DNA of 32,000 bases. It comes from Gemmata obscuriglobus. GTDB lineage: Bacteria; Planctomycetota; Planctomycetia; Gemmatales; Gemmataceae. Shown one piece after another: positions 528 to 21,754 of the stretch. Position numbers and translations under genes: made by a program. The stretch spans positions 6,030,001 through 6,062,000 of the forward strand of contig NZ_CP042911.1 of the NCBI RefSeq assembly GCF_008065095.1, in the 5' to 3' direction. Each line of letters begins with the position of its first letter. Within the stretch, counting starts at the first letter, position 1. A model generated the notes under the pieces. The model did no database searches and was not told where the DNA came from. It saw nothing but the letters and a program-made list of their open reading frames with translations.

Positions 528-920
528 TCACCAGTTGGGAAGGGATTGCTGCTCGTTGCCCTTGACCAGCGCCTCCAGTTCACTCATCCGCACCTCCAAC
601 TCGGCCACCTCGCGCACCTTGAGGCCGAGCTCGAGTATGGCCCGCGCGGCCCCGAGCCTCGTGGCCGGCGGTGTCGAACTGCCCTGGAGTGACAGCAGCG
701 TGCGGACGGCCTCGCCGGCGGCCGCGGTGAGCATCCCGGCGCACCGCCGCACCATGTCGCCGCGGAGCTCCGCGAGCCGGCTCTTGAACGCCGGGTCGTT
801 GAGCCGCCGGTACACGGTGCGGTCGGTCAGCTCGCACTGCTTGGCCGCGGCCTCGACGGTGGCCCCGCACGCCAGCGCCAGCAGCAGCTTGTCGTCGTTC
901 TTCTTCACCCGGTCGCCCAT
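528..920 (-). CDS. helix-turn-helix DNA-binding protein with C-terminal coiled coil (phage regulator or terminase-small-subunit-like)
   Basis: These are the last 130 codons of the 528..3587 track ORF. ATG at 918-920 is preceded by GGAGGAG. HTH-like segment ATVEAAAKQCELTDRTVYRRLNDP. C-terminal heptad-like segment VAELEVRMSELEALV. Confidence 0.65.
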   Translation of the reverse strand: MGDRVKKNDDKLLLALACGATVEAAAKQCELTDRTVYRRLNDPAFKSRLAELRGDMVRRCAGMLTAAAGEAVRTLLSLQGSSTPPATRLGAARAILELGLKVREVAELEVRMSELEALVKGNEQQSLPNW

Positions 921-933
921 GTCGCTCCTCCGC

Positions 934-1053
934 TCAGGTCGGTTCGCGGTGCCCCGGTTGGGGCTCGGCGTGGTCCCACACCACGGTCGCCCGGCCGGGC
1001 CACACCGCGGCGCCCGGGGCTCGGTCCTCGCCGTCCGTGATCGGTAGATACAT
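934..1053 (-). CDS. small hypothetical ORF (39 codons from the ATG; the frame stays open upstream, possible GTG start at 1108-1110)
   Basis: Hand translation gives MYLPITDGEDRAPGAAVWPGRATVVWDHAEPQPGHREPT*. Third positions are almost all G/C. Its TGA sits just before the GGAGGAG RBS of the next gene. It is below the ORF-track length cutoff. Confidence 0.3.
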   Translation of the reverse strand: MYLPITDGEDRAPGAAVWPGRATVVWDHAEPQPGHREPT

Positions 1054-1168
1054 GCGGACCGCGGGACGGACACGCGCCCCGTGCCGTGCGGCCCGCGCGG
1101 CCAGGGCCACGACCCGCGCCGAGATTCGTCCGCCGAACGCCCACTTCGTTCTCCCGGGCTGATCCGTG

Positions 1169-1471
1169 TCAGCCGTTCCCCGGCTCCCGGGCTTCGAGCG
1201 GGTCCGGGGCCGGCGGGTCGAGTTGGTCGAGCCCGAGTACGATCAGCAGCCCGAACGGGGCCAGCGCGCCGTCGGGCACCACCGGCTCGCCGGCGGCCGG
1301 GTCGTACACCAGGGTGCCGGCGAGCGAGCCCGGCGGGCCGTCCCGGTACAGCCCCGGCGCCCGCCCCTCGGCCCGATGCACGGGAACCGCCTCGACGACG
1401 TGGAACACGCCCGGCCGGGGGCGCCCGGCAACCCACTTCGCGACCTTGTCGACCCGCCCGGTGAGCCGCAT
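1169..1471 (-). CDS. hypothetical protein
   Basis: 100-aa ORF with balanced composition. ATG at 1469-1471 is preceded by GGAGCA. It lies in the same operon-like minus-strand array. Confidence 0.5.
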   Translation of the reverse strand: MRLTGRVDKVAKWVAGRPRPGVFHVVEAVPVHRAEGRAPGLYRDGPPGSLAGTLVYDPAAGEPVVPDGALAPFGLLIVLGLDQLDPPAPDPLEAREPGNG

Positions 1472-1513
1472 CGGGTGCTCCTGCGTCAGGTAAGTTCGGA
1501 GCGCCGTCAGGGT

Positions 1514-3562
1514 TTACGCCGCGGCCCGCTCGGCCTTCTGGCCGGTCAACGACTCGAACCGCTGGACGATGACGTCGCAATACCGCGGGTCCAGCTCGAG
1601 CAGGGCCGCGTTCCGCCCGGTCTGCTCGGCGGCGGCCAGGGCGGTGCCGGAGCCGGCGAACGGGTCGAGGACGAGGCCGCCGGGCGGGCACGAGTTGTTC
1701 AGCAGGTACGCGAACAGTTCGGCCGGCTTGGGTGTCGGGTGGTCCGGGTTCTTGGCGGGCTTGTCGAACTCGAGCACGGTGGTCTGGGACCGGTCGCCGA
1801 GCCAGGTGTGGGCGGCCCCGTCGATCCAACCGTAGAGACAGTTGTGCACGACGATGCCGTCCGCCACGTAATGCTTGTCCCGCTCGACGTCCATCGACCA
1901 CACCTCGAGGTCGTGCACCCGCTCGAAGCTGGTGGCCGTCAGGTCGCGCCACTCGAACCGCTCGCCGGCGGTGGGCACCGGCACCTGCATCACGCCCGGG
2001 ACCAGGTTGCACGCGGCCACCTGACGCGACTGTCGGCACGAGAAGTTGCCCGGCTCGTTCGCCGCCAGCAGGGGGAGGCCGGCGGACAGCCCGTGGTCCC
2101 GCAGGAGCCGATCGACGCCCGCCCGGATGCGGTCCACACCGAGCCGCTGGTAGATCGCGTCGATGCCCGCCTGGTCCCGCTGCGCCCAGCTCGCACCCGG
2201 GTTCCGCCCGGTCTCCCAGACCGTGGTCGGTATCCCGTACCGGCACGACACCACCTGCTCGGCGATCCGCGCCTCGGTCAGCGTGGCGAACGCGCCCAGC
2301 ACCCACGCCGCGTCGCCGCGCTCCTGCGACAGGCGCACCGACACCCCGAACCCGCGGCTGTTGAACATCCCGCACACGCCCACGCGCCAGCGGTCGCCGC
2401 GCCGCATGAGGTACAGCAGCCCGGCCTTCGGGCGCGCCGGGTCGAACCGCACGGTGAACCGGTGCTCGGGGGTGGCGCGGGTGCGGAACTCCCCCACCTC
2501 GACGCGGTGCAGGTTGCCGGTGTGGCGCCGGCTCGTGATGCCCGTGACGGCCCGCCCGCGCCGGTAGATCTTGGCGTTCCCGAAGCTGACCACGCGGTCG
2601 CCGGGCTGCAGCGACTCGATGGGCACCTGTTCGATCACCGAATCCTCGCGCCACCGCCCCTCCTTGATCACCTTCGCCACCTGGGTACCGGCGGGCTGAC
2701 ACGGTTCGTGCTTCCAATGGTAATCTTGTCGCCCCAGTACGAGGGCCGACTTGACCCACACCAGGCACTGCCGCACCTGGAGCCCGGCGGCCGCGCAGGC
2801 GGTGCGGACGTCGAGCCCGGCGGTGTCCGCGTGCCACACGTAGAACGCCCCGCCCGGCTTCAGGTGGGCCTTGGCGGCGGTCAGGGCGGCGGTGAGGAAC
2901 GCGCGGTACTGTTCGGGGCTCATGTCGTCGTTGGCAATCGTCAGGGCGTCCGCGGTCTTGCCCGAATAGGCGACGTTGTACGGCGGGTCGGTGAGGAGGA
3001 GGTCGGCGGGCCCGTCGGGCAGCAGGCGCGCGAGGTCGGCGGGCTTGGTGGCGTCGCCGCACAGGAGTCGGTGCCGGCCCAGGCGCCACAGGTCCCCGGG
3101 CCGGGTGAGCGGCTCGGCCGGCGGCTCGGGCACCTCGTCGGGATCGCCGGCGGGCGGGGGCTCGGGTGCGGTCAGGAGCCGGAGGACCTCGTCCTCGGGG
3201 AACGCGGTGAGCGACAGGTCGAAGTCGGCGGTCTGGAGCGCGGCCAGTTCGAGTGCCAGGCGCTCGTCGTCCCAGGTGGCGAGTGTGGCGGTCTGGTTGT
3301 CGGCCAGTCGGTACGCCCGGGCCTGGTCGGGTGTGAGCCCGCGGGCCACGTGCACCGGCACCTCGATCAGGCCCAGCTTCAGCGCCGCCTTGTACCGGGT
3401 GTGGCCCACGATCAGCACGTCGCCCTCGTCCACCACGAGCGGCTGTCGGAACCCGAACGCCCGGATGGACGCGGCGACCGCATCGACCGCGGCGTCGTTG
3501 GCGCGGGGGTTGTTCTCGTACGGTTTGATCGAACCGATCGGTCGCATCACCACGTCCATCAT
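1514..3562 (-). CDS. ParB-like nuclease domain / N6-N4 DNA methyltransferase fusion, interrupted by an in-frame intein
   Basis: 682-aa ORF. N-terminal ParB/Srx-like motif VLIVGHTRYKAALKLG. Methyltransferase motifs LLLTDPPYN (DPPY) and DPFAGSGT. GAGGTGG lies just upstream of the ATGATG start. The conserved block ...QDYHWKHEP / CLYGW... is split by 287 extra codons. Confidence 0.9.
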   Translation of the reverse strand: MMDVVMRPIGSIKPYENNPRANDAAVDAVAASIRAFGFRQPLVVDEGDVLIVGHTRYKAALKLGLIEVPVHVARGLTPDQARAYRLADNQTATLATWDDERLALELAALQTADFDLSLTAFPEDEVLRLLTAPEPPPAGDPDEVPEPPAEPLTRPGDLWRLGRHRLLCGDATKPADLARLLPDGPADLLLTDPPYNVAYSGKTADALTIANDDMSPEQYRAFLTAALTAAKAHLKPGGAFYVWHADTAGLDVRTACAAAGLQVRQCLVWVKSALVLGRQDYHWKHEPCQPAGTQVAKVIKEGRWREDSVIEQVPIESLQPGDRVVSFGNAKIYRRGRAVTGITSRRHTGNLHRVEVGEFRTRATPEHRFTVRFDPARPKAGLLYLMRRGDRWRVGVCGMFNSRGFGVSVRLSQERGDAAWVLGAFATLTEARIAEQVVSCRYGIPTTVWETGRNPGASWAQRDQAGIDAIYQRLGVDRIRAGVDRLLRDHGLSAGLPLLAANEPGNFSCRQSRQVAACNLVPGVMQVPVPTAGERFEWRDLTATSFERVHDLEVWSMDVERDKHYVADGIVVHNCLYGWIDGAAHTWLGDRSQTTVLEFDKPAKNPDHPTPKPAELFAYLLNNSCPPGGLVLDPFAGSGTALAAAEQTGRNAALLELDPRYCDVIVQRFESLTGQKAERAAA
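1841..2701 (-). other. intein (287 codons) inside the methyltransferase gene
   Basis: It starts with Cys (TGT at 2699-2701) directly after extein HEP. It ends VVHN (AAC at 1841-1843) followed by +1 Cys (1838-1840). Block-B-like TPEHRF and block F/G-like VWSMDVERDKHYVADGIVVHN are present. It is in frame, and the flanks rejoin into the conserved HEP-(C)LYGW methylase motif. Confidence 0.8.
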
Positions 3563-3631
3563 CCACCTCGGCGCTGGTGCGCAGCATGTCCCTACCCTCC
3601 TACTTCACGGCCCGCGCGCGACCTGTGCAGC

Positions 3632-3705
3632 AAAGTGGGCGGATTTCCGGCACGTCTTTTTCGCCGCTCCGTCGTGCGCACGAAATACTGGAAAAGTGGG
3701 CGAAT
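3632..3705. promoter_or_regulatory. 13-nt direct repeat AAAGTGGGCG[G/A]AT in the divergent promoter region
   Basis: Copies lie at 3632-3644 and 3693-3705 (12/13 identical), 61 bp apart. They sit in the lower-GC 218-bp spacer between the methylase start (3562) and the plus-strand gene start (3781). Confidence 0.3.
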
Positions 3706-3780
3706 GGACTGGATGGGTGTGGGAACGGGAGGTAACTGTGTGTCACCTCAAATCGCCCGCCCCACGAACCGGAGGATACG

Positions 3781-4251
3781 ATGCCCGCGACGAAGACCAA
3801 GGCGGCCAAGAAGGCCACGAGCAGATCTAACGTGAAGGGCGCGAAGCCGAAGCACAGGGCGAAGGACACCGCCGAGTCGGCACCCGCGAAGAAGCTGAGC
3901 GCGTTGGACGCGGCGGCACGGGTGCTGGCCGCGAGCGGCGAGTCGATGACGGCGAAGGAGCTGATCGGGCGGCTGGCGGCACAGGGGCTGTGGTCGAGCC
4001 CGAACGGGAAGACCCCGGACGCCACCCTGTCCGCGGCGCTGCAGCGCGAGATCGCCACCCAGGGGACCGCGAGCCGGTTCCGCAAGACCGCGCCCGGGCG
4101 GTTCGCGGCAACCACCGCGGGCGCCACGGACGCGACAACGGCCCCGAAGACGAAGGGCGCAAAAGTGAAGCCGAAGAAGGCGCCCACGCGCCCGGCCGAA
4201 CCCGAGGCGGGCGCGACGATCCCGGACGGGACGCCCGGCCCGAAAGCCTGA
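3781..4251 (+). CDS. HARE-HTH (RpoE-delta/ASXL-type winged helix) protein with Lys/Ala-rich histone-H1-like tails
   Basis: ATG at 3781 is preceded by GGAGGA. The core LSALDAAARVLAASGESMTAKELIGRLAAQGLWSSPNGKTPDATLSAALQREIATQGTASRFRKTAPGRFA matches the HARE-HTH pattern. Flanking tails are KTKAAKKATSRSNVKGAKPKHRAK and APKTKGAKVKPKKAP. Confidence 0.75.
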   Translation: MPATKTKAAKKATSRSNVKGAKPKHRAKDTAESAPAKKLSALDAAARVLAASGESMTAKELIGRLAAQGLWSSPNGKTPDATLSAALQREIATQGTASRFRKTAPGRFAATTAGATDATTAPKTKGAKVKPKKAPTRPAEPEAGATIPDGTPGPKA

Positions 4252-4291
4252 GCGCACGGTTCCGCATCTGAACGTGCCGGGGCTTCGCAAC

Positions 4292-4313
4292 AACGGCCCG
4301 TCGCGGGGCCGTT
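4292..4313. terminator. hairpin between convergent genes (bidirectional terminator candidate)
   Basis: AACGGCCC (4292-4299) pairs with GGGCCGTT (4306-4313) around a 6-nt loop, followed by TTCGCGTT. It lies between the stop of 3781..4251 (+) and the stop of the replicase (-). Confidence 0.45.
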
Positions 4314-4386
4314 TCGCGTTCCGGCCCGTCTGGCCGACCCGCCGCTCCGAGCGCGCCACGCGGCAACGTCGCGCGAATGGAAGCTC

Positions 4387-7300
4387 TCACCCGCCCCAGG
4401 TGCGGCCGGCGCTCACCTCGACCTCGACCGGCACCGGGTCGATGAGCGGGGCCATCCCGTCCCGCATCGCGTCCCGCACCCAGGCGATGGCTTCGTCCCG
4501 ACGCTCCTCGGAGCACTCGACCACGATCTCGTCGTGCACCAACAGCACGGGGAACGCGTCCGGGCAGGAGTTGCGGCGCGCCCACAGCAGGGCCAGCGCC
4601 CGCTTCAGCCCGTCGGCCCCGGTCCCTTGCACGGGAGTGTTCAACTTCTCGGTGAACGCGCCCACCCCGACCCGCCGGCGCCCCGCCAGGGTGCGCGTTT
4701 GGATGATGCCGTCGGGCACCTTCCGGTGCCACGCACGGAGGCCCGGGTAGGTGCGGAAAAACGCGTCCCGGTGATCCGCCGCCTCGCCCTCGGTCAGCGC
4801 CACCCCGAAGTTCGACGCGGCGTACGCGGCCAGGGCCTTCGCCCCCATGCCGTAAAGAAGCCCGAAATTCAAACTTTTGCTCAACTGACGGTCGGCCTTG
4901 GTGACGTCTGTTTTCCCGAGCACCGCGCGGGCCGTGGTGGTGTGCAGGTCCTCGCCCTTCTGGTACGCGTCGAGCATCCGCTTGTCGCCGGTGATCTTGG
5001 CCGCGATGCGGAGCTCGATCTGGGAGTAGTCGGCCTTCACGAGGACGCGGCCGGGCGGCGTTACGAAGCACCGGCGGAACCGCGGGTCCCGGGGCAGCTG
5101 CTGCAGGTTCGGGTCCTTGCAGCTCATGCGCCCGGAGGCCCCGGCCCCGACCTGCTTCCACGCGGCGTACACGCGGCCGTCATCGGCCACGTGCCGGAGC
5201 CACCCGCGCCCGTACGTGCCCGACAACTTGGACGCGGCCCGGTGCTCGCGCAGCAGAGCCGCGGCCGGGTGGGCCACCGCGGCCAGCGCGTCGTCGCCGG
5301 TCGAGGTCAGGGCCACCCCGGCGGCGGCGAACGCGGCCGTCACCTCGTCGACCGAGTTCCAGTTGGTCACCCCGAACAGGTTGCCCGCGTTGGGCAGCAG
5401 TTCGTCCAGGTGCTCCCGGGCCCGGGCGGCACACGCCTCGGTGTCGGCGGCCACGGCATCCCACGCGGGCCGGTCGAACCCGACCCCGTGCCGCGCGGCC
5501 CACGCGACCGCCGGCAGCGCCGCCATCTCGGCCTCGGCGGTGCCGGTCAGGTGCGCGGCCGCCAGCTCGGGCGCGAGCCGCTCCCACAGCGCGAGGGGTA
5601 ACTCGGCGTCGCGGGCGGCGTACCCCAGGTGCGCGTCGGTGAGCGGCCCCGACCAGTCGGCGGTCTGCAGCCCCTTGTCGAGCTCGAGTCCCAGGTGCCG
5701 GTGGGCCAGGTCCTTCAGTGAGTGGCCGGTGGTGCGGTTCCCGGCGTGCAGCACCTGACTCGCGAGCATGGTGTCCCGCACCCGCCCGGGCACGAACCCG
5801 AGGCGCATCAGGAACGGCAGGTCGAACCCCAGGTTCTGGCCCACCACCTCGACCGCCGTCAGCGCCTCGAGCAGTGGTGCCAGGGCCGCGGCGGGGTCGG
5901 GGAGCGCGAACAGGTCGACGAGGAACGTGCCGCTCGGGGTCGCGAGCGAGAGCAGCCGGACCCGGTCGCGGGCGTGGGACAGGCCCGTGGTTTCGAGGTC
6001 CAGACCGACCAGGGCCGCGGCCCCGGTGACCGCACGTACGACCTCGGCGAGGGCACCCGCCTCGCGCACCCACATCCGACCCCGGTGTGACACAACCCCC
6101 TCGGTGTGACACGACCCGTCGCCGGCGTCGGACCCCGATTCGGGCGCCGGGTCCGAACGCTCGCGGCCGGGTGTGACAGATGACACGACCTTGACCGCGC
6201 CCGCGCCCGGTTCCGGCCCGACGACGGAACTACTTGGTGGCGTGGCGGTTGCGCCGCCAGACCCGCCCGCCGGGGCCGCGGGGCTCCTGTCACACCCGGC
6301 GGTTGTGTCACACCGCGACCCGCCGGCGCCGGCCCCCTCCGCGCCGGCCGGCGCATCGGCCTCGGAGGTTCTGTCATCTGTCACACCGGGCACGAAGGCC
6401 CGCGTCGGGGGGCCGCCGTTGGACCCGCCCGCGACCGGCTCCCAGCGCCCGAACCCGAGCCGCACTAGCCCGTCGAGCGCGGCCTCGGCGGCGGCCGCGG
6501 TGTACCGCTTCTGGTTGGACCGGTGGAGATCCCGGGCCCGCACCGCACCGCCGCACCGGGCGGCAAGCTTGCGCACCGCCTCCAGCAGGTGCCGGGCGCC
6601 CTGCACCTCGGGCGGCTCGGCCAGGGCCAGGTACGCGCGCTCGGCCTCGTCGCGGAACCAGGTGGTCAGCTCGACCGCGGCGCCCATGTCGTCCGCCGCG
6701 ATCGGGTGCTCGTGGGCCCGCGCCTGCAGCCGGCAGCAGTGGAAGATGAGGGCGAACCGCAGGGCGTACCCCTCGAGCTTGCTCATGACCGCGCTCATGT
6801 CCTCGTCGGCGGTCTCCAGGGCCTCGCCGTTGGCGTTGTAGAACGCCACGAACCGGGCCTTGGCGTCGGCGCCCAGGGGGACCAGGTGCGGGGCCGGCTT
6901 GCCGTTGGGCCAGGTGCCGGCGGGGAGCCGGTGCAGGTCGCCCAGGAGCGCGGCGAACGCGCCGCGGGTGGGCTCGTCGATCTCGGCCTCGGTCCACTGG
7001 CGCTTGCGCCACGGGGGCAGCGCCAGAAGCAACCGGGCCAGGAACCCCGAGGCCCGGAACTCCTCGGTGAGGACCCGCGAGAGCACCTTGGGCTGGATGG
7101 TGCCGGTGACGGACACCCCGACCCCGCGGACCCGGACCTCGCGCTTGTCCGGGTCCCCGGTCTTGCGGGTGTAGTTGATGGTGCCGGCGTGGTGCAGCTG
7201 GAGCCACCGGGGCAGGTCGCTGGCCCCGGTCTTGCCGGCGTACTTGACGAAGCTCCCGATCCAGGCGCTCAGCTCGTCCTGGCCGATGACCAGCCCGCGC

Positions 7301-8751
7301 GGGTTCTCCTGGAGCGCGCCGACCAGGGCCTCGATGGTGACGTCGCCCTTGATGAACGCGCGCTTGACCGGTTTGACGGGGCGGGCCCCGGGGTCCGCGC
7401 CGTCTTGCTTGGCGTCCTCCCACTGTTCGAGTTCGACCTCGTACGCGGCCAGCGCCGTTCGGTACTCGGCCTCGAGCCGGTCGTTGATGTCCTCGGCCAG
7501 GTCCTCGACGTCGCGGTACGGCGGGCTCTTGATGGCGCCGGACTTGCCGACGGGCAGGGCCCAGATGTACGGCGGCTCCTTCCACCGCTTCTTGGGGGAC
7601 GCGACGTGGGAGCTGCCGATGGCGGCCCCGAGGGCGGCGAGCGCGGGCAGCGCGCTGTAGGCCCGGTCGCAGTTCATAGCGGCGGCGGTGGCCTCGACGT
7701 AGGCGCGGACCACGGGCGGGAGCAGGTGCGTGGGGAACGGGATGTAGGGCGGGATCTCGGGCGCCGGCGGCCGCGGGGCGGCTCCGGGTTTTCCGCCCGT
7801 TGGTCCGGCCCCCACGGTCGCGCGAGCCGCGGGCGGGTCGGGGACGCCGAGCCACTCCTGGACCCGGGCCACCACGGCGGCGGCGGTGGCGTTGTCGAGG
7901 GACGGGTCGAGCATCTCCTTGAGCGCCGGCAACCCCGTCATCGGCTTGCCGGCCCGGAGCCGCTTGCGGGCGTCGGCCACCGCCCCGGCCCCTTCGCCGG
8001 CGGCGATCTTGGCCACCTTGTCGGGGTCGTTCTTCGCGGCGAACACGGCGGTGACGAACGCCACCGCCCGGGCGTCGTCCTCCCAGCCGGCGCGGGCCAG
8101 CAGGTTGGCGACCAGCAGCACCAGCGCGTGCCGCTCCTGGGGCCGGGCGTACCGGGCCAGCAGCACCGCCGCCCCGACGTGCCGCACCGCGGCGGCAAGT
8201 TCGGCGCCGGCGACCGCCGCAGGCTCGCCCGCGCGGGCCCACTCGAGCCCCTCGCCGCTGGCGTGGAGCGACGGCGGGAACACGGTCTGGAGGTGCTTGA
8301 ACCGCCCCTCGGCCTCGTCCCACTCGGGCCACCGCAGCTCGACGATGGTGGCCCGGTCCCCGGACCGCACCGGGTCGAGTAACTTGGCGAACGCGGCGGT
8401 GCGGTCGGTGACGGCGTACAGCCGGTGGGTGGTCTCGCCGCCGCGCCCGAACGCGCTGTTCGTGGCGGGGAGCAGATGGGGGCCGGCGACCGCGGCCTCG
8501 CCGCAGTCCAGGTCGACGTCGGCCAGGCCGGCGGAGTTGGGGCCCAGCTTGACCCCGACGTTGCGGCCGGCGAAATGTTCGGGGGCGGCGGTGCCGCCGG
8601 GCCAGAACCGGGCGTCCGGGTGCTTGCCCGGCTTGGGACAGTCGGGGCGCCCGCACGAGCAGGCGCCCCGGTCGAGGTCGGGGCGGTGCACCGGGACCGT
8701 GCACCAGCCACGGGCCCGGTACCGCGCGACGGCTTCGGCGACGGTGCTCAT
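4387..8751 (-). CDS. fused replicase: AEP PrimPol + DUF3987-type P-loop ATPase + DnaQ-like 3'-5' exonuclease + family A DNA polymerase
   Basis: ATG at 8749-8751 is preceded by GGAGG and overlaps the upstream stop as ATGA. There is no stop codon down to 4387. PrimPol motifs: CSCGRPDCPKPGKHP, DVDLD, THRLY. ATPase motifs: PVGKSG, VIGQDELS. The low-complexity linker spans ~6076-6429. Exo motifs: DLETTGL, NLGFDLPFL, YAARDAE. PolA motifs A/B/C: DYSQIELRIAA, KSLNFGLLYG, LLVHDEIVVE. Confidence 0.9.
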   Translation of the reverse strand: MSTVAEAVARYRARGWCTVPVHRPDLDRGACSCGRPDCPKPGKHPDARFWPGGTAAPEHFAGRNVGVKLGPNSAGLADVDLDCGEAAVAGPHLLPATNSAFGRGGETTHRLYAVTDRTAAFAKLLDPVRSGDRATIVELRWPEWDEAEGRFKHLQTVFPPSLHASGEGLEWARAGEPAAVAGAELAAAVRHVGAAVLLARYARPQERHALVLLVANLLARAGWEDDARAVAFVTAVFAAKNDPDKVAKIAAGEGAGAVADARKRLRAGKPMTGLPALKEMLDPSLDNATAAAVVARVQEWLGVPDPPAARATVGAGPTGGKPGAAPRPPAPEIPPYIPFPTHLLPPVVRAYVEATAAAMNCDRAYSALPALAALGAAIGSSHVASPKKRWKEPPYIWALPVGKSGAIKSPPYRDVEDLAEDINDRLEAEYRTALAAYEVELEQWEDAKQDGADPGARPVKPVKRAFIKGDVTIEALVGALQENPRGLVIGQDELSAWIGSFVKYAGKTGASDLPRWLQLHHAGTINYTRKTGDPDKREVRVRGVGVSVTGTIQPKVLSRVLTEEFRASGFLARLLLALPPWRKRQWTEAEIDEPTRGAFAALLGDLHRLPAGTWPNGKPAPHLVPLGADAKARFVAFYNANGEALETADEDMSAVMSKLEGYALRFALIFHCCRLQARAHEHPIAADDMGAAVELTTWFRDEAERAYLALAEPPEVQGARHLLEAVRKLAARCGGAVRARDLHRSNQKRYTAAAAEAALDGLVRLGFGRWEPVAGGSNGGPPTRAFVPGVTDDRTSEADAPAGAEGAGAGGSRCDTTAGCDRSPAAPAGGSGGATATPPSSSVVGPEPGAGAVKVVSSVTPGRERSDPAPESGSDAGDGSCHTEGVVSHRGRMWVREAGALAEVVRAVTGAAALVGLDLETTGLSHARDRVRLLSLATPSGTFLVDLFALPDPAAALAPLLEALTAVEVVGQNLGFDLPFLMRLGFVPGRVRDTMLASQVLHAGNRTTGHSLKDLAHRHLGLELDKGLQTADWSGPLTDAHLGYAARDAELPLALWERLAPELAAAHLTGTAEAEMAALPAVAWAARHGVGFDRPAWDAVAADTEACAARAREHLDELLPNAGNLFGVTNWNSVDEVTAAFAAAGVALTSTGDDALAAVAHPAAALLREHRAASKLSGTYGRGWLRHVADDGRVYAAWKQVGAGASGRMSCKDPNLQQLPRDPRFRRCFVTPPGRVLVKADYSQIELRIAAKITGDKRMLDAYQKGEDLHTTTARAVLGKTDVTKADRQLSKSLNFGLLYGMGAKALAAYAASNFGVALTEGEAADHRDAFFRTYPGLRAWHRKVPDGIIQTRTLAGRRRVGVGAFTEKLNTPVQGTGADGLKRALALLWARRNSCPDAFPVLLVHDEIVVECSEERRDEAIAWVRDAMRDGMAPLIDPVPVEVEVSAGRTWGG
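6084..6387. repeat. array of six GGTGTGACA[C/G] sites, three forward then three inverted, inside the replicase linker
   Basis: Forward copies lie at 6084-6093, 6103-6112 and 6170-6179, plus half-site TGACAC at 6181-6186. Inverted copies lie at 6287-6296, 6305-6314 and 6378-6387, plus half-site TGTCAT at 6372-6377. 6083-6096 is the perfect reverse complement of 6302-6315 (14/14). 6170-6185 is the perfect reverse complement of 6372-6387 (16/16). Confidence 0.7.
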
Positions 8752-8942
8752 CGGTCGCCTCCGCTCGGGCCGAGCAGGTGCACCAGGTCGCTCGCGGCCC
8801 AGCACCGGGCGCCGTCGAGGGCCCGACACTCGGTGGCGTGTGGGGCCAGTCGCGGGAGCTCGTTGGGATCGATCTCCAGGGCCCACAGGTCATCTTCGCT
8901 CAGGTAGTCGTCGGGCACGAGAACCTCCTTCTCGGCGCGCAC
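8748..8942 (-). CDS. hypothetical acidic protein (64 aa)
   Basis: The ORF has normal composition (MRAEKEVLVPDDYLSEDDLWALEIDPNELPRL...). Its TGA overlaps the replicase ATG (ATGA at 8748-8751), implying translational coupling. Confidence 0.5.
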   Translation of the reverse strand: MRAEKEVLVPDDYLSEDDLWALEIDPNELPRLAPHATECRALDGARCWAASDLVHLLGPSGGDR

Positions 8943-9330: not shown

Positions 9331-9909
9331 CTAACTACCTTCTTCACGGTCCGGCGCCGAAGTGTTCAAACACGGGGACAGAATGTCGGCGAGGGCCCGC
9401 ACCTCGGTGCGGGCGTTGAGCTCGCGCACCCGGGCGTACACGGTGCCCCGCGCCACCCCGAGCGCCTCGGCCGCGGCGGTGATGGTGGTGTGCGCCGAGA
9501 GCGCCTGGGCGACGGCCCGCAGGTCGGGCGGCAGCGCGGCCAGCACCGCAGCGACCGCGTCCGCCGCGTCAACCGCGTCGCGGTCACGTTCCGCGTCGCG
9601 GGCCGGCACCTCGTCGGGCAGCGGCTCGAGCGTTCCCGGGTTCCGCTTGGCCGCGCCGAGGTCCCGCAGGATGTTCGCCGCCGCCCGCTCCACGAGGGTC
9701 TGGACGTAGCTCAGCCGGTCCCCCTTGTCCGGGTCGGGGACGAACCGGCGGAGCGGTTCGAGCAGCCGCGCGACGAGTTCCTGTTCGAGGTCGGGGCCGT
9801 CCTGTCGGGTCAGCCCGGCGTGCCCCACGAGGGCCCGGGCCTTGAGCCGGATCACGCGGGCCACGGCCCCGTCGATCGGGTTGCCGGGCGCGTTCGGGTT
9901 CGGGTCCAA
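9331..9909 (-). CDS. sigma-70 family (ECF-like) RNA polymerase sigma factor encoded by the element
   Basis: Region-2-like segment DLEQELVARLLEPLRRFVPDPDKGDRLSYVQTLVERAAANILRD. Region-4 HTH segment LSAHTTITAAAEALGVARGTVYARVREL. The likely TTG start at 9907-9909 lies 7 nt after GGGAGGAG. The track ORF extends to 10011 as a Pro/Arg-rich lead-in. Confidence 0.7.
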   Translation of the reverse strand: MDPNPNAPGNPIDGAVARVIRLKARALVGHAGLTRQDGPDLEQELVARLLEPLRRFVPDPDKGDRLSYVQTLVERAAANILRDLGAAKRNPGTLEPLPDEVPARDAERDRDAVDAADAVAAVLAALPPDLRAVAQALSAHTTITAAAEALGVARGTVYARVRELNARTEVRALADILSPCLNTSAPDREEGS

Positions 9910-10074
9910 GGAGGCGCTCCTCCCGGCCGGGACGAGCGGAGGGCGCGGGCACGGATCCCGTGGCGCCGGCCCGCGCGGCGCGGGGCGATGCGAACACCGG
10001 GTGGTGCCCACGATCGCCTCCGCGGTGCGGCCGGCTGATGGTCGGGTGCAGGGGGTTGGGGCGACGGTGCCCGG

Positions 10075-10546: not shown

Positions 10547-10553
10547 GCGGGTG

Positions 10554-11720
10554 TCACACCTCCCACTCCACGTCCGGGACCGGCGCGTACCGGAGCTCCG
10601 CACCGGTCTCGATGGACGCGTGCAGGTGGCGGGCGAGCTCGGGGAGCGGCCGCTCGAGCGCCCCGATGACGTGGTCGATGGCGTTCTTGACGGACGTGCG
10701 GAGGCTGGTCGATTCGTCGCCCAGCCGCCGCCCCCGCCGGCCGGGGCCCCGGTGCGCGTGGGCGCGCCCGACGATCGCGTGGAACTGGTCCTGCAGGCGC
10801 TCGACCCGCGCCCAGTCGTGGTCGCCTCGCGCCCGGGCGATTTCGTCGGCCAGCTCGCGCGACACGCGCTCGTCGTCCGCCGCCGTGTCGCCGCGGTACG
10901 GCGCCGGGCTCGCGCGGCCGCGCACCACGTCCCGCAGCTCCGCCGCGCGGATGTGCCGCCGCTTGGCCTGGATCAGCCGCGCGACGTACCACAGCCCGAT
11001 CCGGTCGCCGAGCAGCGCCGTCTTCCCGGCGAACGTCACCGACCACGCCCCGCCGCCGTGCCAGAGCGCGTTCCGCGGTTGCCAGTCGCCCGCCCGCGGG
11101 CGCGCCACCTGGGCGGCCCAGGCGAGCGCCGCCTCGAGCGGCGAGACGGGGCGCAAGCGGCCCGGGCCGGCCGCCGCAACGGCGGCCGCGAGCGGGACCG
11201 CCCCGCGCCCGTCCCGTCGGAGGGCCGGATCGGCGGCCACCACCCGGCTCGTGCACAGCAGGAGCGGCGGGCCGTCGCCCCCGGTGCCCAGGTGGGGGGC
11301 GAGCGCGCGCGCCGCGGCCACCGTCCCGGTGAGCACCAGGAAGCACGTGTACCGGGCTCCGGCCGCGCCGGTGAGCGGTCCGACGTGGGCGGCCCGCGGG
11401 GCCGGGTCGCGGGCCGGCTCGCGGCGCAGCCCGAGGGCGTCGGCCACCGCCCCCGCCAGCGCCGGCGCGTCGACCTCGTGCTCCCGCTCGTCCGGATCCG
11501 CGCGGCTCGCGCCCGACGGCGCGAGCCGCAGGAACGGGCGGACGAGGTCGAACTCGGGTCCGAGCCGGCGCCCCCAATCGGTCAGGGCGGTGGCGAGCTC
11601 CGGGAGCGCGTCGGCCGCGTCCCAGAACCGGGTCAGGGCGGTCGGCTCCGGGGCGCCCGGGGGCCACGGTCCGGGGTGGTCCGACTCGTTCGGGGCTGTG
11701 GCGGTGTTGCGGGTGACCAT
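10554..11720 (-). CDS. hypothetical protein (388 aa), possible regulator
   Basis: The ORF has balanced composition. The segment WSVTFAGKTALLGDRIGLWYVARLIQAKRRHIRAAEL resembles the 'W.v.f.G....l.d.kGl.Yla.Ll' motif seen at the N-termini of many actinobacterial and planctomycetal regulators (recalled from memory, unnamed). No clear SD. Confidence 0.6.
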   Translation of the reverse strand: MVTRNTATAPNESDHPGPWPPGAPEPTALTRFWDAADALPELATALTDWGRRLGPEFDLVRPFLRLAPSGASRADPDEREHEVDAPALAGAVADALGLRREPARDPAPRAAHVGPLTGAAGARYTCFLVLTGTVAAARALAPHLGTGGDGPPLLLCTSRVVAADPALRRDGRGAVPLAAAVAAAGPGRLRPVSPLEAALAWAAQVARPRAGDWQPRNALWHGGGAWSVTFAGKTALLGDRIGLWYVARLIQAKRRHIRAAELRDVVRGRASPAPYRGDTAADDERVSRELADEIARARGDHDWARVERLQDQFHAIVGRAHAHRGPGRRGRRLGDESTSLRTSVKNAIDHVIGALERPLPELARHLHASIETGAELRYAPVPDVEWEV

Positions 11721-12086: not shown

Positions 12087-12502
12087 TCACCCGCTCACCC
12101 GGTCGAGCCGTGCACGCCACATCGCGCGCTGCCGCGCCCAGTCGGAGGTGGCGGCGATTGGCCGCAGGTCGCGGAGCACCAGCGGATCCCGTCCGCGCAC
12201 CACCGGGGGCAAGAACAAGACCGTTTCGATGAGATCGGGGGCCAGGTGGATGAGGGCCATGATCTGACTAACGCGGGCCCGGGTCACGTGCCCCAGCCGC
12301 GCCAGCTCGGCCTGGTCGGTGACGGAGCCGGTGCGGATCAGTTCGTCGAACCGCAGGGCCAGGGCCATGAGACGGGCGACCCGGGGCACCCGCCCGGGCT
12401 CGGGCGGGGCCGGCGCGGGGCCCTCGCGCAGCTCCTTGGTGCGGCCCTTGCGGGCGAAGTGGATCGTGCCCGCCACCGTCAGCGGGGCCGTGGTGGCGGT
12501 GC

Positions 12503-12506
<4 letters not shown>
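12087..12506 (-). CDS. ParB/KorB-like helix-turn-helix protein, recombinase-associated (139 aa)
   Basis: These are the last 139 codons of the track ORF 12087..13163. ATG at 12504-12506 overlaps the recombinase TGA (ATGA). HTH segment DQAELARLGHVTRARVSQIMALIHLAPDLIETVLFLP is typical of small proteins found beside serine recombinases. Confidence 0.7.
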
Positions 12507-14106
<1,600 letters not shown>

Positions 14107-14110
<4 letters not shown>

Positions 14111-14604
14111 GTGCCCTCCGGCTTGTTGAGCTTGAAGAAGTGGAACCCGTTGAGGTGGGTCCCGGTGACCGCCGCGGCGACCGCGCTGAGGGAGGCGAAC
14201 GTCCGGCCGTCGTACTCGAACCCGCTGGCCAGCACCAGGACCTGAACGTCGGCGCCCTTGTACGTGCGGGTGATCACGGTGCCGGGCGGGGGCAGTCGCG
14301 GGTCACTCGCGTGCGTCGGCACGGTGCCGGTGCGGACCGGCCCGGGCGCGGGTTCGTCGGCGTGGCCCTTGGGCGGGATCAAGCGCAGGTCCGCGTCTCG
14401 GGCCAGCTCGGCGGCCCGGGCTTGCGCGCGGGCGCTGAGCCCGCCCTCGGCCAGGGCCTGGAGCCGCCACGCGATCCTTCGGACGAGCCACGTGCGGTTG
14501 CCCGACGCGGTGGGCTCGCCGAACACCTCCGCGTACCGCGCCCGCAGCTCTTTCGGGGTCAGCCGGCGCAGCCCGGCCAGTTCCTTCGCGACGTCGATCG
14601 GCAC
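14107..14604 (-). CDS. DUF2924-family protein (recombinase-associated)
   Basis: Motifs LTPKELRARYAEVFGEPTASGNRTWLVRRIAWRLQALAEGGLSARAQARAAELA and C-terminal YKGADVQVLVLASGFEYDGRTFASLSAVAAAVTGTHLNGFHFF match my memory of DUF2924. The GTG at 14602-14604 lies 6 nt after GGAGGT. An alternative ATG sits at 14698-14700. Its TGA overlaps the recombinase ATG (ATGA at 14107-14110). Confidence 0.75.
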
Positions 14605-14650
14605 CTCGTGACCTCCACGGAAAAGCTGGCGATCTCGGCTCTCGGCGGCG

Positions 14651-14860
14651 TTAACCGCCGGTCCCAGTGACGCTCTTTTCGCGCGCGTCCGCAAGCTCAT
14701 TCGTGCCAAAATCTGAGGTTCCGGCGGTGCCGGTGGAGGGCGGTGATTCGTGTACGAGCAGGGCCGAGCCGATGCGCACGAGCCCGGTGGCGAGGAGGCG
14801 CGCCAGCTCGCGGGCGCGCTCGTCGGGGGTGAGGGTAACGGGGTTGCGGGTGGAAGGCAT
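14651..14860 (-). CDS. small hypothetical protein (69 aa) heading the recombinase operon
   Basis: ATG at 14858-14860 is preceded by GAGGTG. The sequence MPSTRNPVTLTPDERARELARLLATGLVRI... has high third-position G/C in its first ~35 codons. Confidence 0.4.
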   Translation of the reverse strand: MPSTRNPVTLTPDERARELARLLATGLVRIGSALLVHESPPSTGTAGTSDFGTNELADAREKSVTGTGG

Positions 14861-14966: not shown

Positions 14967-15054
14967 AAGTGTTCAGAGAAGGGCGCTAGGCGTGGATCCG
15001 AGCACTGGTTGTGTGAGTGCCGCCCGGCGCCGGTAGCGGGGCGTTCGGCGCCGA

Positions 15055-15108
15055 CTCGTCTGCGTGCTCGAGGCGGAAAACCGACTCCGTCGTGAGCACG
15101 CAGACGAG
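15055..15108. repeat. perfect 15-bp inverted repeat with a 24-nt spacer
   Basis: CTCGTCTGCGTGCTC (15055-15069) is the exact reverse complement of GAGCACGCAGACGAG (15094-15108). CCGACT occurs immediately around both arms. Confidence 0.8.
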
Positions 15109-15223
15109 CCGACTGGTTACCGGGGCGTTCCAAATTTAATTGTTTCCACATGCCGAACGATGTCTAATTTCTCATGTTTTCTCGCCCGGCCGGTACTGGC
15201 TGAGCGGCCCCGAGGAAGCCATC

Positions 15224-19473: not shown

Positions 19474-21049
19474 GTAAGCGTTCACGGGTGATGCGGCAGT
19501 GTATCAACAGTTGGCGAGTAGCGGATTCACAACGTTCTGTTGTTGAGCTTCAGCTGGAACGAGCGTCGGTGCCTTCGCGCCGGTCCGGTGTGCGGTGACG
19601 GCGTCGATGAGGAACGCCAAGACGTTGCGCTTCTGGCGGCGGCACGAGGCGATCACCGTGAGGATTCGTTCCACGAACCGGCTCCCGCGTTCGCTGTCGG
19701 TCCCGAAGCTGGTTTTGCGCCAGCACACGGCGTGACGCACCTCACGCTCGGCCGCGTTGTTGGTCGGTTCCACGCCGACGACACGCGCGAACGTCCACAA
19801 CGACGCCTCGACCGACAACAGTTCCGCGCAGGTCGTGGCGGTCTTGGCGCAGCCGCACGCCGCCCCGTTCCGCAGGTGCGTGCCGACCTGACGACGCAAC
19901 GCGGGGATGTAGGTCGAGCGACATGTGGACCGCGCGAGGGTTCCGTCCCGCACCCGATACCAGTTCTCGAACAGGGCGTCCGAACACGCCAACAGAGCCG
20001 CGCCGATCGCCTGTCCGGAACCGCCCCGGTCGATCATCGCCTGGAAATCGCGTCGCAGGTGCGCCCAGCAGAGTTGACGCTTGTACTTGTCGAGGTGCGT
20101 GTACACCGGATACCGGTCCGTCGTATGCACGGCCGTGGACCCGGCACGCAGGTCATCAAAGGCGGCCCGGCCCCGGGTCCGGCGGATCAGGAACGCCACC
20201 ACGAACGTGGTCACGGCGGCCCACAGCCAGGCCCGCTGACGCCCCTGCTTCCAACCGGTCTCGTCCACGTTGGCCGGGTGCCCGCGGGTGTACACCAGGG
20301 CCTGTTCGGCCACCGGCTTCAGCGCCTCGGCGGTTCGGTGCTGGAGCTTGCACACCATGGCCGGGCTCAGGGGCAGGCCGAACAGATCGTCGAACAGTTG
20401 GCTCGTGCCCCGCTTGCCCAGACGGCACGAGCCGGTGAGAAGCGCGGCCACCGCCTGCGCCCGGGGGCCGTATCCGGTGCGCGCCTCCGACGGCACCGCG
20501 GGCACCGTGGTCGTGCCGCAGTGGGGGCACCGGAGCCGGTGGCACCGATACTCGGTCACGTGGGGTTTGATAACGGGCAACTCGTGGACCTGATGAATGG
20601 CCGGAGCCGGATCGTCCCCGGCCAGCGACCGCGAGCAGTCCCGGCACACGGACGGCTTGAGGGTCCGGATCTCATCGGGTGGCAGGAGCGTGCGCTCGGC
20701 TTTGGGATGCCCCGGTTGCCCGCCCCGACGCTTCCCCGAAGGGGCCTTGGGCGGGGCCAGTTTCACCTGCGGAGGATCGGACGAGGGCGGCTTCGACGAG
20801 TTGGTGGAGCTCTGGTTGAGTCGGGCCTTGAGTTCGGCGACCTCGGCCACCAGAGCAGTGATCGTGGCCTCCAAGGCGCGAATATACGCCACCACCGCCG
20901 GTGGTAAGTTATCGGGCAGTTCCGGCGGTTGAGGAACAGGCGTCATGACGTCTGCTCGATTACGGAACATGCCCGCTTGTGGCAACCGCGTATCCAAACG
21001 GGCTAAAATGACGGGCAAAAGCGGGTGGCGCACCCCCATGAACGCTTAC
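19474..21049 (-). mobile_element. IS66-family insertion sequence (single-ORF type), apparently intact
   Basis: The terminal inverted repeat GTAAGCGTTCA lies at 19474-19484, with its reverse complement at 21039-21049 (11/11). The 8-bp target duplication AAAAGTGG lies at 19466-19473 and 21050-21057. The element is 1576 bp. Confidence 0.9.
19504..20946 (-). CDS. IS66-family transposase
   Basis: 480 aa from the ATG at 20944-20946. It has an N-terminal zipper (LPPAVVAYIRALEATITALVAEVAELKARL), the NSSKPPSSD motif and a CPHCG zinc finger, then a DDE-type core. The track ORF start at 21039 lies inside the terminal repeat. Confidence 0.9.
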   Translation of the reverse strand: MTPVPQPPELPDNLPPAVVAYIRALEATITALVAEVAELKARLNQSSTNSSKPPSSDPPQVKLAPPKAPSGKRRGGQPGHPKAERTLLPPDEIRTLKPSVCRDCSRSLAGDDPAPAIHQVHELPVIKPHVTEYRCHRLRCPHCGTTTVPAVPSEARTGYGPRAQAVAALLTGSCRLGKRGTSQLFDDLFGLPLSPAMVCKLQHRTAEALKPVAEQALVYTRGHPANVDETGWKQGRQRAWLWAAVTTFVVAFLIRRTRGRAAFDDLRAGSTAVHTTDRYPVYTHLDKYKRQLCWAHLRRDFQAMIDRGGSGQAIGAALLACSDALFENWYRVRDGTLARSTCRSTYIPALRRQVGTHLRNGAACGCAKTATTCAELLSVEASLWTFARVVGVEPTNNAAEREVRHAVCWRKTSFGTDSERGSRFVERILTVIASCRRQKRNVLAFLIDAVTAHRTGAKAPTLVPAEAQQQNVVNPLLANC

Positions 21050-21754
21050 AAAAGTGGACTGACGAGTCGCAAGATCGAGTACGGGGTGATCCCACCGAAG
21101 GCCGATGGGGAGTTCGTGGCCCACATGGAGGTGGTCCTGGACACGTACACCACGCCCTACGATTGCCGGTACCCGGTGCTGAACAGGGACGAGCAGCCAA
21201 TCCCGTTGCTGAAGGAGACGCGGGTCCCGATCCCGGCCACGACGAATCACCCGCGGCGGGTCGATTACGAGTACGAGCGGGCCGGGACGGCGAGCATCTT
21301 CATGTTCGGTGAGCCCCTGGCCGGGTGGCGCCAGGGGCGGGGCCGGGAGCACCGGGCCAAGGTCGACTGGGCGGTGGAGATGGGGGCGCTGTTGCGGGGC
21401 CGGTACGCGGCCGCCGAGAAGGTGATCCGGGTGTGCGACAACCGGAACACGCACACCATCGGGGCGTTCTACGAGGCATTCGATCCGGTCACGGCCCGGG
21501 CCCTGGTGCGTCGGCTCGAGTTCCGCCACACGCCCAAGCACGGCAGCGGGCTCAACATCGCCGAGAACGAGCTGAGCGCGAGGACCCGGCAATGCGTGCA
21601 CGGCCGCCGGTTCGCGACGATCGAGGCGTTGCGCGCGGAGACGGTCGCGTGGCACGAGTACGTCAACGACAAGCCGCGCGGCGTCGAGTGGCAATTTCGC
21701 ACCGACGACGCGAGAACCAAACTGAACTCGCTCTACCCTAAAATTAAAACCTGA
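21050..21754 (+). pseudogene. IS630-family transposase, C-terminal DDE part (separated from its N-terminus by IS66)
   Basis: It reads KSGLTSRKIEYGVIPPKADGEFVAHMEVVLDTY...VCDNRNTHT...FRHTPKHGSGLNIAENELS...FRTDDARTKLNSLYP. It is in the same frame as the 19034 ATG but offset from the middle segment (the A7 run at 19463-19469). Confidence 0.8.

Follow-up and report, generated by a model that had tools for sequence, protein, structure and literature searches.

A four-module replicase of a Gemmata obscuriglobus integrative element carries an opposed iteron array, a candidate replication origin, in its translated linker

The DNA analysed here, referred to as the window, is a 32,000-nucleotide stretch of the Gemmata obscuriglobus chromosome (contig NZ_CP042911.1, positions 6,030,001 to 6,062,000) that covers nearly all of a ~16-kb integrative element equipped with a replication module of its own. 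Within this element lies a minus-strand open reading frame (ORF) of 1454 codons, whose product is 100% identical to a G. obscuriglobus protein annotated 'DNA polymerase I, thermostable' and comprises, in order, an archaeo-eukaryotic primase (AEP)-type primase-polymerase (PrimPol), a helical bundle, a DUF3987/MCM-like helicase, a winged helix, a linker, a 3'-5' exonuclease and a family A DNA polymerase (PolA). We regard the 1454-codon, four-module architecture and the reality of the fusion as practically beyond doubt. The gene is conserved, and the family to which it belongs has been recognised in print yet is uncharacterised. An earlier, sequence-only reading of the window had described the four modules and had treated the stretch between helicase and exonuclease (6076-6429) as a linker. 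We find that this stretch carries a conserved array of short, opposed repeats (iterons), and on balance we favour the view that it is the replication origin of the element.

The replicase frame can be opened at position 8886 (GTG) or 8751 (ATG) and runs down to a stop codon at 4387-4389. Since long spurious ORFs are common at a G+C content such as that of the window (about 72-75%), its codon-position composition was checked. The minus-strand frame 4387-8889 has a G+C content of 0.75, 0.55 and 0.93 at the first, second and third codon positions, which is the coding signature of the other real genes in the window. ATG 8751 is the likely start of the 1454-aa protein, because third-position G+C (GC3) exceeds 0.9 only from about 8760 on in a sliding analysis, replicase homologues begin at the equivalent Met, and the stop codon of a small upstream ORF, a syntenic counterpart of which occurs in homologous elements, overlaps this ATG. 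GC3 remains at 0.9-1.0 along the whole frame except at aa ~796-891 (window ~6079-6366). In this part the values are 0.75-0.85 and G+C is high at the second position, with the frame staying open; the linker peptide encoded there is an Ala/Gly/Pro/Ser stretch of low complexity. The single uninterrupted frame of the sequence-only reading is thus borne out by the ORF call, by GC3 and by the starts of homologues. The coordinates of the replicase, its modules and the neighbouring genes are collected in Table 1.

Table 1. Features of the replicase gene and of the surrounding element (window coordinates; HTH, helix-turn-helix; AF2, AlphaFold 2; pLDDT, predicted local distance difference test)
Feature	Coordinates	Strand	Description and basis
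Replicase ORF	4387..8751	-	1454 aa, ~158 kDa; ORF call, Pfam, GC3, homologues
64-codon upstream ORF	8748..8942	-	stop overlaps replicase ATG as ATGA (8748-8751)
AEP primase-polymerase domain	8212..8751	-	aa 1-180; Pfam PF09250, motifs, AF2 and Foldseek
Helical bundle after primase	7849..8208	-	aa 182-301; AF2 secondary structure and pLDDT
Pro-rich flexible stretch after helical bundle	7717-7848	-	aa 302-345; AF2
DUF3987 AAA+ helicase domain	6532..7716	-	aa 346-740; Pfam, Walker residues, AF2 and Foldseek
C-terminal winged-helix domain	6367..6531	-	aa ~741-795; AF2 model, alignment
Iteron array in linker coding sequence	6085..6386	both orientations	six GGTGTGACA copies; proposed replication origin
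3'-5' exonuclease domain	5452..6078	-	aa 892-1100; Pfam, motif alignment
Family A polymerase domain	4390..5451	-	aa 1101-1454; Pfam, NCBIfam, motif alignment
DUF2924 protein and large serine recombinase	12503..14700	-	integration/excision module, right edge of element
Recombinase-associated 139-aa gene	12087-12506	-	upstream of replicase
Sigma/HTH-like protein	9331-10011	-	upstream of replicase
HARE-HTH gene	3781-4251	divergent	downstream of replicase
Accessory genes	528..3562	-	methyltransferase, 100-aa ORF, HTH protein
ParB_N/N6_N4 DNA methyltransferase	1514-3562	-	downstream of replicase
HTH_23 protein	528-929	-	weak small-terminase match, phrog_2538, E 8e-7

Pfam profiles bear out the four modules, the Prim-Pol match being marginal, and PHROGs and NCBIfam agree with the Pfam domain reading. 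The catalytic residues are intact in every module, as the sequence-only reading had stated, and the corresponding activities are predicted from them; two of its motif assignments, in the PrimPol and in the Walker A motif, did not stand. Invariance below refers to an alignment of 17 full-length homologues with 44-76% identity. The N-terminal module is an AEP PrimPol with intact catalytic motifs and predicted primase activity. Its match to Prim-Pol (PF09250) spans aa 10-178 (E 5.9e-5, 24.0 bits against a cut-off of 22.8), and a precomputed PF09250 match is present in many replicase homologues. AEP motif I, DVDLD (aa 78-82), has D78, D80 and D82 invariant in the homologue alignment, and motif II, GGxxTH (H109), and motif III, VELR (E138), are each at least 90% conserved. 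The domain also contains a CxC..C..H knuckle at aa 31-44. GKHP (aa 42-45), formerly read as a catalytic motif, is instead a conserved N-terminal element, the His motif being GGxxTH. Searching PDB sequences with a profile built from the PrimPol-helicase alignment returned nothing useful (best E 0.5), so that fold comparison was needed. The best two PDB matches in Foldseek to an AF2 model of aa 1-345 (pLDDT 90.3) are both AEP primases, the prim-pol domain of pRN1 ORF904 (1rni; prob 0.99, TM-score 0.44 on the target) and RepB' (3h20), with fold scores that are modest.

The DUF3987 module is an MCM-like AAA+ helicase that ends in a winged helix and is predicted to unwind DNA. It matches PF13148 over aa 361-707 (E 2e-60), and Walker A residues G405 and K408 and Walker B residues D492 and E493 are invariant. 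In Walker A it is K408 of G-x-S-G-x-x-K-S that is conserved, and not the lysine of 'GKSG' named previously, which varies among homologues (K/D/E/R/P). The top PDB matches to an AF2 model of aa 346-800 (pLDDT 82.9) are SsoMCM and the Mcm subunits of CMG (prob 1.00, TM-score ~0.4), and further matches include the SCCmec Cch helicase, ComM, RuvB and Orc1/Cdc6. In the model the C-terminus of the helicase forms a helix-turn-helix and a beta-hairpin, that is, a winged helix, which closes with a conserved strand, GGxPxRxFVP, directly abutting the first iteron. For AgaPH, a PriCT-DUF3987 protein with the same Pfam domain, experiments have demonstrated helicase activity that depends on the Walker motifs (PMC11724360).

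The C-terminal half of the replicase belongs, by sequence, to the Aquificae-like PolA subfamily, the same one as apicoplast PREX. DNA_pol_A_exo1 matches aa 895-1063 (E 4.5e-25) and DNA_pol_A matches aa 1149-1453 (E 1.2e-65). Exo I (D918/E920), Exo II (N973/D977) and Exo III (Y1044/D1048) are invariant, as are polymerase motif A (D1241), motif B (R1288/K1292/F1296/Y1300) and motif C (H1406-D1407-E1408). Among NCBIfam models, PRK14975.1-3 ('bifunctional 3'-5' exonuclease/DNA polymerase') scores best (597.3 bits); the NF011539 equivalog cut-off of 640 bits is missed, making the polymerase a relative rather than a member of that family. The closest solved structures are 8jrb (3.8e-78), on which a literature search found nothing relevant, and PREX (5dku/7sxl; 1e-62), with Klenow (2.5e-45) and Taq (1e-41) well behind. 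Because the PREX structures lie so far ahead of Klenow, the analogy drawn with PREX by the sequence-only reading amounts to true homology for this half of the protein. Its description of the gene as a whole replisome was overstated, as there is no clamp, single-stranded DNA-binding protein, ligase or primer-removal nuclease; in Pfam the replicase has no match to the 5'-3' nuclease domains PF02739/PF01367, which ordinary Pol I proteins (P0028, P0029 of our protein set) do match.

The fusion of these modules is conserved among homologous loci. An identical protein is encoded on 11 G. obscuriglobus contigs, of which three are longer than 1 Mb and others come from the older draft GCA_000171775.1 and from a Logan assembly made independently; the presence of the same protein in several assemblies excludes an assembly frameshift, and a pseudo-fusion is likewise ruled out by these contigs together with 22 loci in which the linker is open. 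About 20 full-length homologues (44-76% identity) were found, mostly in metagenomes, plus one in Gemmata algarum, and a search of 1.84 billion cluster representatives with aa 255-1454 as the query recovered the complete order primase-helicase-exonuclease-polymerase in at least 24 clusters (50% identity). When one genome per species was scanned, 416 primase-helicase relatives emerged across Planctomycetota; among 80 retrieved loci, PolA lies downstream of the primase-helicase only in Gemmataceae-type loci. The comparison of homologous loci that had been proposed as a check shows helicase and exonuclease in one open frame at 22 distinct Gemmataceae loci and split at five, and all five splits fall in the linker: as overlapping ORFs in different frames (loci L007 and L008), as a shift (L012), as a stop codon in the linker (L013), and as two small genes between the halves in Gemmata sp. 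G18 (L006).

PREX had been named as the only comparable architecture. The same PolA subfamily is, however, repeatedly fused to primase-helicase modules, as published descriptions also indicate (PMC10201439, PMC7689252), and a comparable enzyme with a family B polymerase has been characterised (PMC12205980). In many further long proteins we find this PolA lineage behind other front ends, namely DUF3854 with DUF927, a DnaG zinc ribbon, DUF5906, and a PrimPol with a different helicase. Identities to the query for primase, helicase and polymerase are 34, 74 and 68% in L003, 75, 30 and 81% in L006, and 68, 42 and 55% in L005; such independent variation between loci indicates that modules have been exchanged. 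Several individual homologues depart from the common pattern. The N-terminus of P0013 (aa 1-~250) aligns poorly with the family PrimPol and has no precomputed Prim-Pol match; its motifs DVDLH and SYHIF, read by eye, possibly mark a different AEP-type domain. P0048, P0089, P0098, P0103, P0134 and P0143 retain the PrimPol and have a helicase region without a DUF3987 profile match. Finally, P0016 (1876 aa) contains a LAGLIDADG_3 domain (PF14528) between its exonuclease and polymerase Pfam matches, which suggests an intein within the replicase of another element.

A repeat scan revealed a 26-nt inverted repeat inside the linker, and closer inspection of the sequence resolves an array of six GGTGTGACA copies. 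Three are in the coding sense (6379-6386, 6306-6313 and 6288-6295) and three are inverted (6171-6178, 6104-6111 and 6085-6092); in each set the copy that comes first along the coding strand (6379-6386 and 6171-6178, respectively) is a tandem double (GTGTGACAGATGACA). The array opens with the codon that follows ...RAFVP, the closing strand of the winged helix. The word GTGTGACA occurs seven times in the window, six of them within 302 bp of linker, against an expectation of 0.8 per window, and none of 100 shuffles reached seven. The seventh copy (10552-10559, minus strand) lies at the stop codon of a 388-aa gene and may be a chance occurrence or a secondary binding site. Within the linker the word appears in three codon phases and on both strands and is translated as the unrelated peptides GVTD, RCDT, GCDR, SVTP, CHTE and VSHR, which argues that the constraint acts on the nucleic acid and not on the peptide; a repeated peptide motif is thereby ruled out.

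An array of about 300 bp is conserved in the linker across relatives, its position being kept and its sequence not. Homologous linkers share a common layout of two to three forward copies, a spacer of ~90-120 bp and three to four reverse copies, and the iteron word differs by element: GCATGACA in L003 and L016, GTGACGAAAC in L005, GTGTGACG in L008 and L009, GTGACGAA in L012 and L013, GTAGTGTC in L019 and TGACAGTG in L043. At 17 of the 30 PolA-bearing loci (14 distinct loci without duplicate assemblies) the linker contains an 8-mer cluster that outscores every other cluster of the 8-24 kb locus. In the five elements that share GTGTGACA, the repeats form conserved islands between diverged spacers. 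The constraint on the nucleic acid explains the semi-conserved peptide islands in the protein alignment. The 30-nt window with the lowest G+C of the entire gene lies, in L005, L007, L017 and L019, within the spacer between the opposed iteron sets. The array has also been enlarged in places: in G. algarum (L009 8382-9390, P0003) it has grown to ~1 kb with 12 GTGTGACG copies, in a protein of 1699 aa, and at L008 10369-10990 it is duplicated as a whole unit.

Opposed repeat clusters are not confined to the fused genes. Helicase-only relatives in other Planctomycetota have them around the 3' end of the helicase ORF at 15 or more of 57 loci, mostly within the last 100-250 nt of the ORF, and the split locus of Gemmata sp. 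G18 has a palindromic iteron array of ~300 bp in the tail of its PrimPol-helicase ORF. The array is therefore a property of the primase-helicase and older than the fusion. A conserved segment, RSNQ(R/K)(R/K)Y, also varies with the repeat: Gln is replaced by Cys in L003 and L016 (RFNCRKY) and in L028 (RANCRRY), and this replacement accompanies a change of the iteron from GTGTGAC to GCATGAC in two helicase lineages.

The linker DNA is read as an origin because two characterised origins also lie directly 3' of a gene encoding a helicase with a winged helix. The winged helix of the Rep protein of Staphylococcus aureus pathogenicity islands (SaPIs) binds 6-12 iterons directly 3' of rep, half of them on each side of an AT-rich centre and in opposite directions (PMC9371898), and the origin of pRN1 is found just 3' of its primpol-helicase-winged-helix gene (PMC4234260). 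The features of a SaPI-type replicon found here are a serine recombinase with DUF2924, a primase-helicase-winged helix, and three plus three opposed iterons. By analogy, replication might proceed as follows. The serine recombinase would excise the element, as its gene content suggests, and the winged helix would bind the iterons located right after its own coding sequence, as their position and the precedents suggest. The helicase, presumably as an AAA+ ring, would load itself and melt the spacer between the iteron sets; the PrimPol, whose motifs are intact, may then make primers, possibly of DNA, and the tethered proofreading PolA, with motifs likewise intact, would extend them. Some PrimPols of mobile genetic elements do lay down DNA primers, and DNA primers would explain why a primer-removal (5'-3') nuclease is lacking. 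The fusion itself may have arisen by read-through of the origin into a downstream PolA gene, such that the origin DNA doubles as an interdomain linker, and insertions or deletions in the repeats would toggle relatives between fused and split forms. Three observations fit an origin without proving it: repeats as a source of such indels match the restriction of splits to the linker, the array is expanded in L009 and duplicated in L008, and the Gln-to-Cys replacement covaries with the iteron.

We judge it reasonably probable that the linker DNA is the origin of the element and that the mechanism, origin included, is broadly as outlined. Held more tentatively, at somewhat short of an even chance, is the fuller proposal that this one ORF is a complete replicon, comprising initiator, helicase, primase, proofreading polymerase and origin, in which the iterons are translated as a flexible linker, co-evolve with the winged helix and act as the seam at which modules fuse, split and are swapped. 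Several observations weigh against this explanation. Exact k-mer counting revealed no clear array in L020, L021, L023, L026, L027 and L085, the linkers of which may hold more degenerate repeats or none. The centre of the Gemmata array is not clearly AT-rich, its minimum 30-nt G+C of 0.57 falling on an iteron, and the spacing of the array halves is not that of a simple palindrome. A single strand of the region folds into a nested three-stem hairpin (z = -4.9). At the N-terminus, the Prim-Pol score barely exceeds its threshold and AEP motif III carries Glu, not Asp. Moreover, the enzyme activities and the origin function are inferred from sequence and structure prediction.

The hairpin bears on an alternative in which the array is real and is not an origin, serving as an operator or partition site for another protein of the element, such as the HTH/sigma-like protein, the HARE-HTH protein or the ParB-methylase, or as a hairpin in messenger RNA or single-stranded DNA that serves, for example, to signal priming or to pause translation between the halves. 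The element does encode several DNA-binding proteins, and the pRN1 origin has been described as a stem-loop and not as iterons (PMC4234260). However, the six copies share one sequence and include tandem direct doubles, as is expected of a protein-binding site and is needless for a hairpin, and the region matches no Rfam family. In elements that lack a PolA, ParB-methylase or HARE-HTH gene, too, the array is found at the helicase 3' end, which indicates that it tracks the primase-helicase rather than the other candidate binders. We consider such a non-origin function improbable, for the hairpin variant as for the rest. A recombinase attP site was also considered for the linker and is ruled out, since the gene is intact in the integrated state whereas an attP site would be split between the element ends; an array of six or more repeats, moreover, does not have the form of a serine-recombinase site. 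Somewhat less improbable than a non-origin function, although still unlikely, is that the ORF yields two working proteins, either by post-translational cleavage, as in PfPREX, or from an internal start for the exonuclease-PolA half, so that helicase ring and polymerase act separately, a possibility that overlaps in part with the explanation that we prefer. PREX is proteolytically processed, and Pyrovirus relatives of the polymerase are 'fused or unfused' (PMC7689252). The halves are separate genes in five relatives, a 12-kb cyanobacterial plasmid has helicase and the same PolA type in adjacent genes, and an in-frame ATG (M893, window 6073-6075) lies just ahead of the exonuclease domain. This Met is, however, not conserved among homologues, which rules out a conserved internal PolA start, and the frame is open at 22 distinct loci in spite of linkers that vary in length and sequence, pointing to selection for read-through.

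That the large ORF is a cryptic remnant, left unused in a decayed prophage or satellite, seems to us very improbable indeed. The Gemmata element has no capsid, portal, tail or large terminase genes, the related element L005 carries fragments of a terminase large subunit, and no close relative, defined as one covering at least 80% of the protein, was found in IMG/VR, PLSDB or INPHARED, where only distant PrimPol or PolA parts match. On the other hand, a 4.4-kb frame with a GC3 of 0.93 and intact catalytic residues is conserved down to 44% identity across genera, and the synteny of recombinase, DUF2924 and small ORFs is intact. We retain a functional replicase with an origin in its linker as the preferred reading.

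The architecture is a variant of a known theme, and the linker array is its new part. Czernecki et al. (2023) report an N-terminal AEP primase-polymerase fused to the same PolA subfamily in ~7% of the bacterial sequences of their cluster, from Planctomycetota, Verrucomicrobia and Nitrospirae (PMC10201439), and these fusions are almost certainly the same thing as the Gemmata replicase, which also has the canonical Phe in motif B. The passages of that paper devoted to AEP fusions, one sentence and a table entry, mention no helicase domain, mobile element, origin or biochemistry; relative to these passages, the helicase and winged-helix part, the element and the linker iteron array are new. In the literature more widely the architecture is mentioned, but no description of the helicase, the element or the biochemistry was found.

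Among other systems, the initiator gene O of phage lambda contains an iteron origin in the part that encodes the interdomain linker of the protein, differing from the present gene in that no PolA is fused to it. The PREX helicase is of the T7 gp4/Twinkle-like kind, and Pfam finds a PREX-type N-terminus (Toprim with a T7 gp4/Twinkle-type helicase) absent from the replicase, with AEP and DUF3987 present instead. The replicase shares with PfPREX the order of activities in one chain and a homologous exonuclease-PolA that is among its closest solved structures, whereas PfPREX has a Toprim primase and a different helicase (PMC10201439) in place of the AEP and MCM-like AAA+ modules, and is nuclear-encoded, organelle-targeted and proteolytically processed rather than encoded by a bacterial integrative element. 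The '3173 Pol' polyprotein (1606 aa) of a Pyrovirus, Thermocrinis Octopus Spring virus, joins DUF927, exonuclease and PolA, and is fused or split depending on the virus (PMC7689252). It resembles the replicase in its N-terminal primase/helicase-like region, its 3'-5' exonuclease, its PolA lineage and its fused and split relatives, and differs in having DUF927 rather than DUF3987, no recognised AEP, and a 37-42 kb tailed virus with capsid genes as its host genome. Lactococcal phage 1706 GP55, a 'four-in-one replicase' of the order helicase-AEP-PolB that has been shown to synthesise DNA de novo (PMC12205980), likewise combines helicase, AEP primase, polymerase and 3'-5' exonuclease in a single chain, but its polymerase is of family B, its order is helicase-primase-polymerase, and no in-gene origin has been described for it.

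The closest parallels to the proposed origin are only partial. SaPIs and other phage-inducible chromosomal islands (PICIs) share with this element an integrase, their own primase, a self-loading helicase with a C-terminal winged helix, opposed 3' iterons and a small-terminase-like gene; in contrast, the SaPI origin is intergenic and is used with the host polymerase, whereas the Gemmata array is part of a coding sequence that continues into a proofreading PolA, and the helicase family and integrase type (serine here) differ. pRN1 ORF904 has the same succession of primpol, helicase and winged helix, and no solved structure matches the N-terminus of the replicase better than its prim-pol domain, but its helicase is of superfamily 3, its origin is non-coding and no PolA is fused to it. 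A separate observation concerns plasmid pAL20118a of Cyanobacterium aponinum (L151; 12.2 kb), in which a DnaB-like helicase gene abuts a PolA gene of the same lineage (2706-7547); this PolA has 34% identity to the query polymerase, and the pair reads, from its sequence, as a split, plasmid-borne counterpart of a PREX-type module.

If the replicase works as one chain, it would parallel PREX and the phage 'four-in-one' replicases in a mesophilic bacterium, with an archaeal/eukaryotic-style front end (AEP and MCM-like helicase) joined to a bacterial-type proofreading PolA; as a compact enzyme it would be a candidate for DNA synthesis that needs no primer, displaces strands and is of high fidelity. 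Should the linker be the origin, ~4.4 kb would suffice for replicase and origin together. Such a cassette would be very small and self-contained, and might serve as a vector backbone in Planctomycetes, for which genetic tools are scarce. The linker would then also clearly exemplify DNA that is constrained in two ways, as protein linker and as binding-site array, and would offer a mechanistic reason why this PolA lineage keeps fusing to and splitting from primase-helicase genes. The probable translated iteron origin thus lifts the gene beyond routine annotation.

The synteny of recombinase and replicase, together with the lack of capsid genes, is the basis for reading the surroundings as an integrative element of ~16 kb. 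The suggestion that the gene serves as the replication machine of a mobile element is upheld, the ORF being the obvious replicase beside the DUF2924 and serine recombinase genes. Homologous elements have the same recombinase-to-replicase synteny, and some of them end directly after PolA. Upstream of the replicase there are also several small ORFs and a 365-bp intergenic stretch of lower G+C. The element could be plasmid-like, satellite-like or a reduced prophage. Its small-terminase-like gene hints at a satellite-like or reduced-prophage origin; in L005 the equivalent of this gene lies beside Terminase_6N and Terminase_6C (large-subunit) fragments, and in the Gemmata element no capsid, portal, tail or large terminase genes were seen. 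No known RNA family and no tRNA integration site was found within the window.

In the methyltransferase gene, a 287-aa insertion (1841-2701, minus strand) lies exactly between HWKHEP and CLYGW, by comparison with the 394-aa orthologues of L005 and L007; it has Cys as its first residue, His-Asn as its last and Cys thereafter, an intein signature, and no Pfam intein or endonuclease domain was reported within it. On the left, the element extends ~0.8 kb beyond the end of the window, where four more small ORFs are followed by a bacteriophage exclusion (BREX)-type cluster (L001 19684-24365) encoding PglZ, a BrxC/BrxD-family ATPase and a DEAD/Lhr-like helicase; this cluster adjoins the element and is either its cargo or chromosomal flank. 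To the right of ~15 kb lie ordinary Gemmata genes, encoding a WD40-caspase, IS66, a giant repeat protein, a kinase and an extracytoplasmic function (ECF) sigma factor. A 26-nt inverted repeat with an 8-nt spacer and 85% complementarity (15052-15111), at the right border of the element between the DUF2924 and WD40-caspase genes, could be a terminator or the remnant of an attachment site. Further into this flank, an IS66-family transposase gene (minus strand) and a DDE_3 transposase gene (plus strand) at 19504-21754 overlap at 20933-21045, with a G+C content of 0.64-0.69, and resemble insertion sequences of the host flank that are nested or abut one another.

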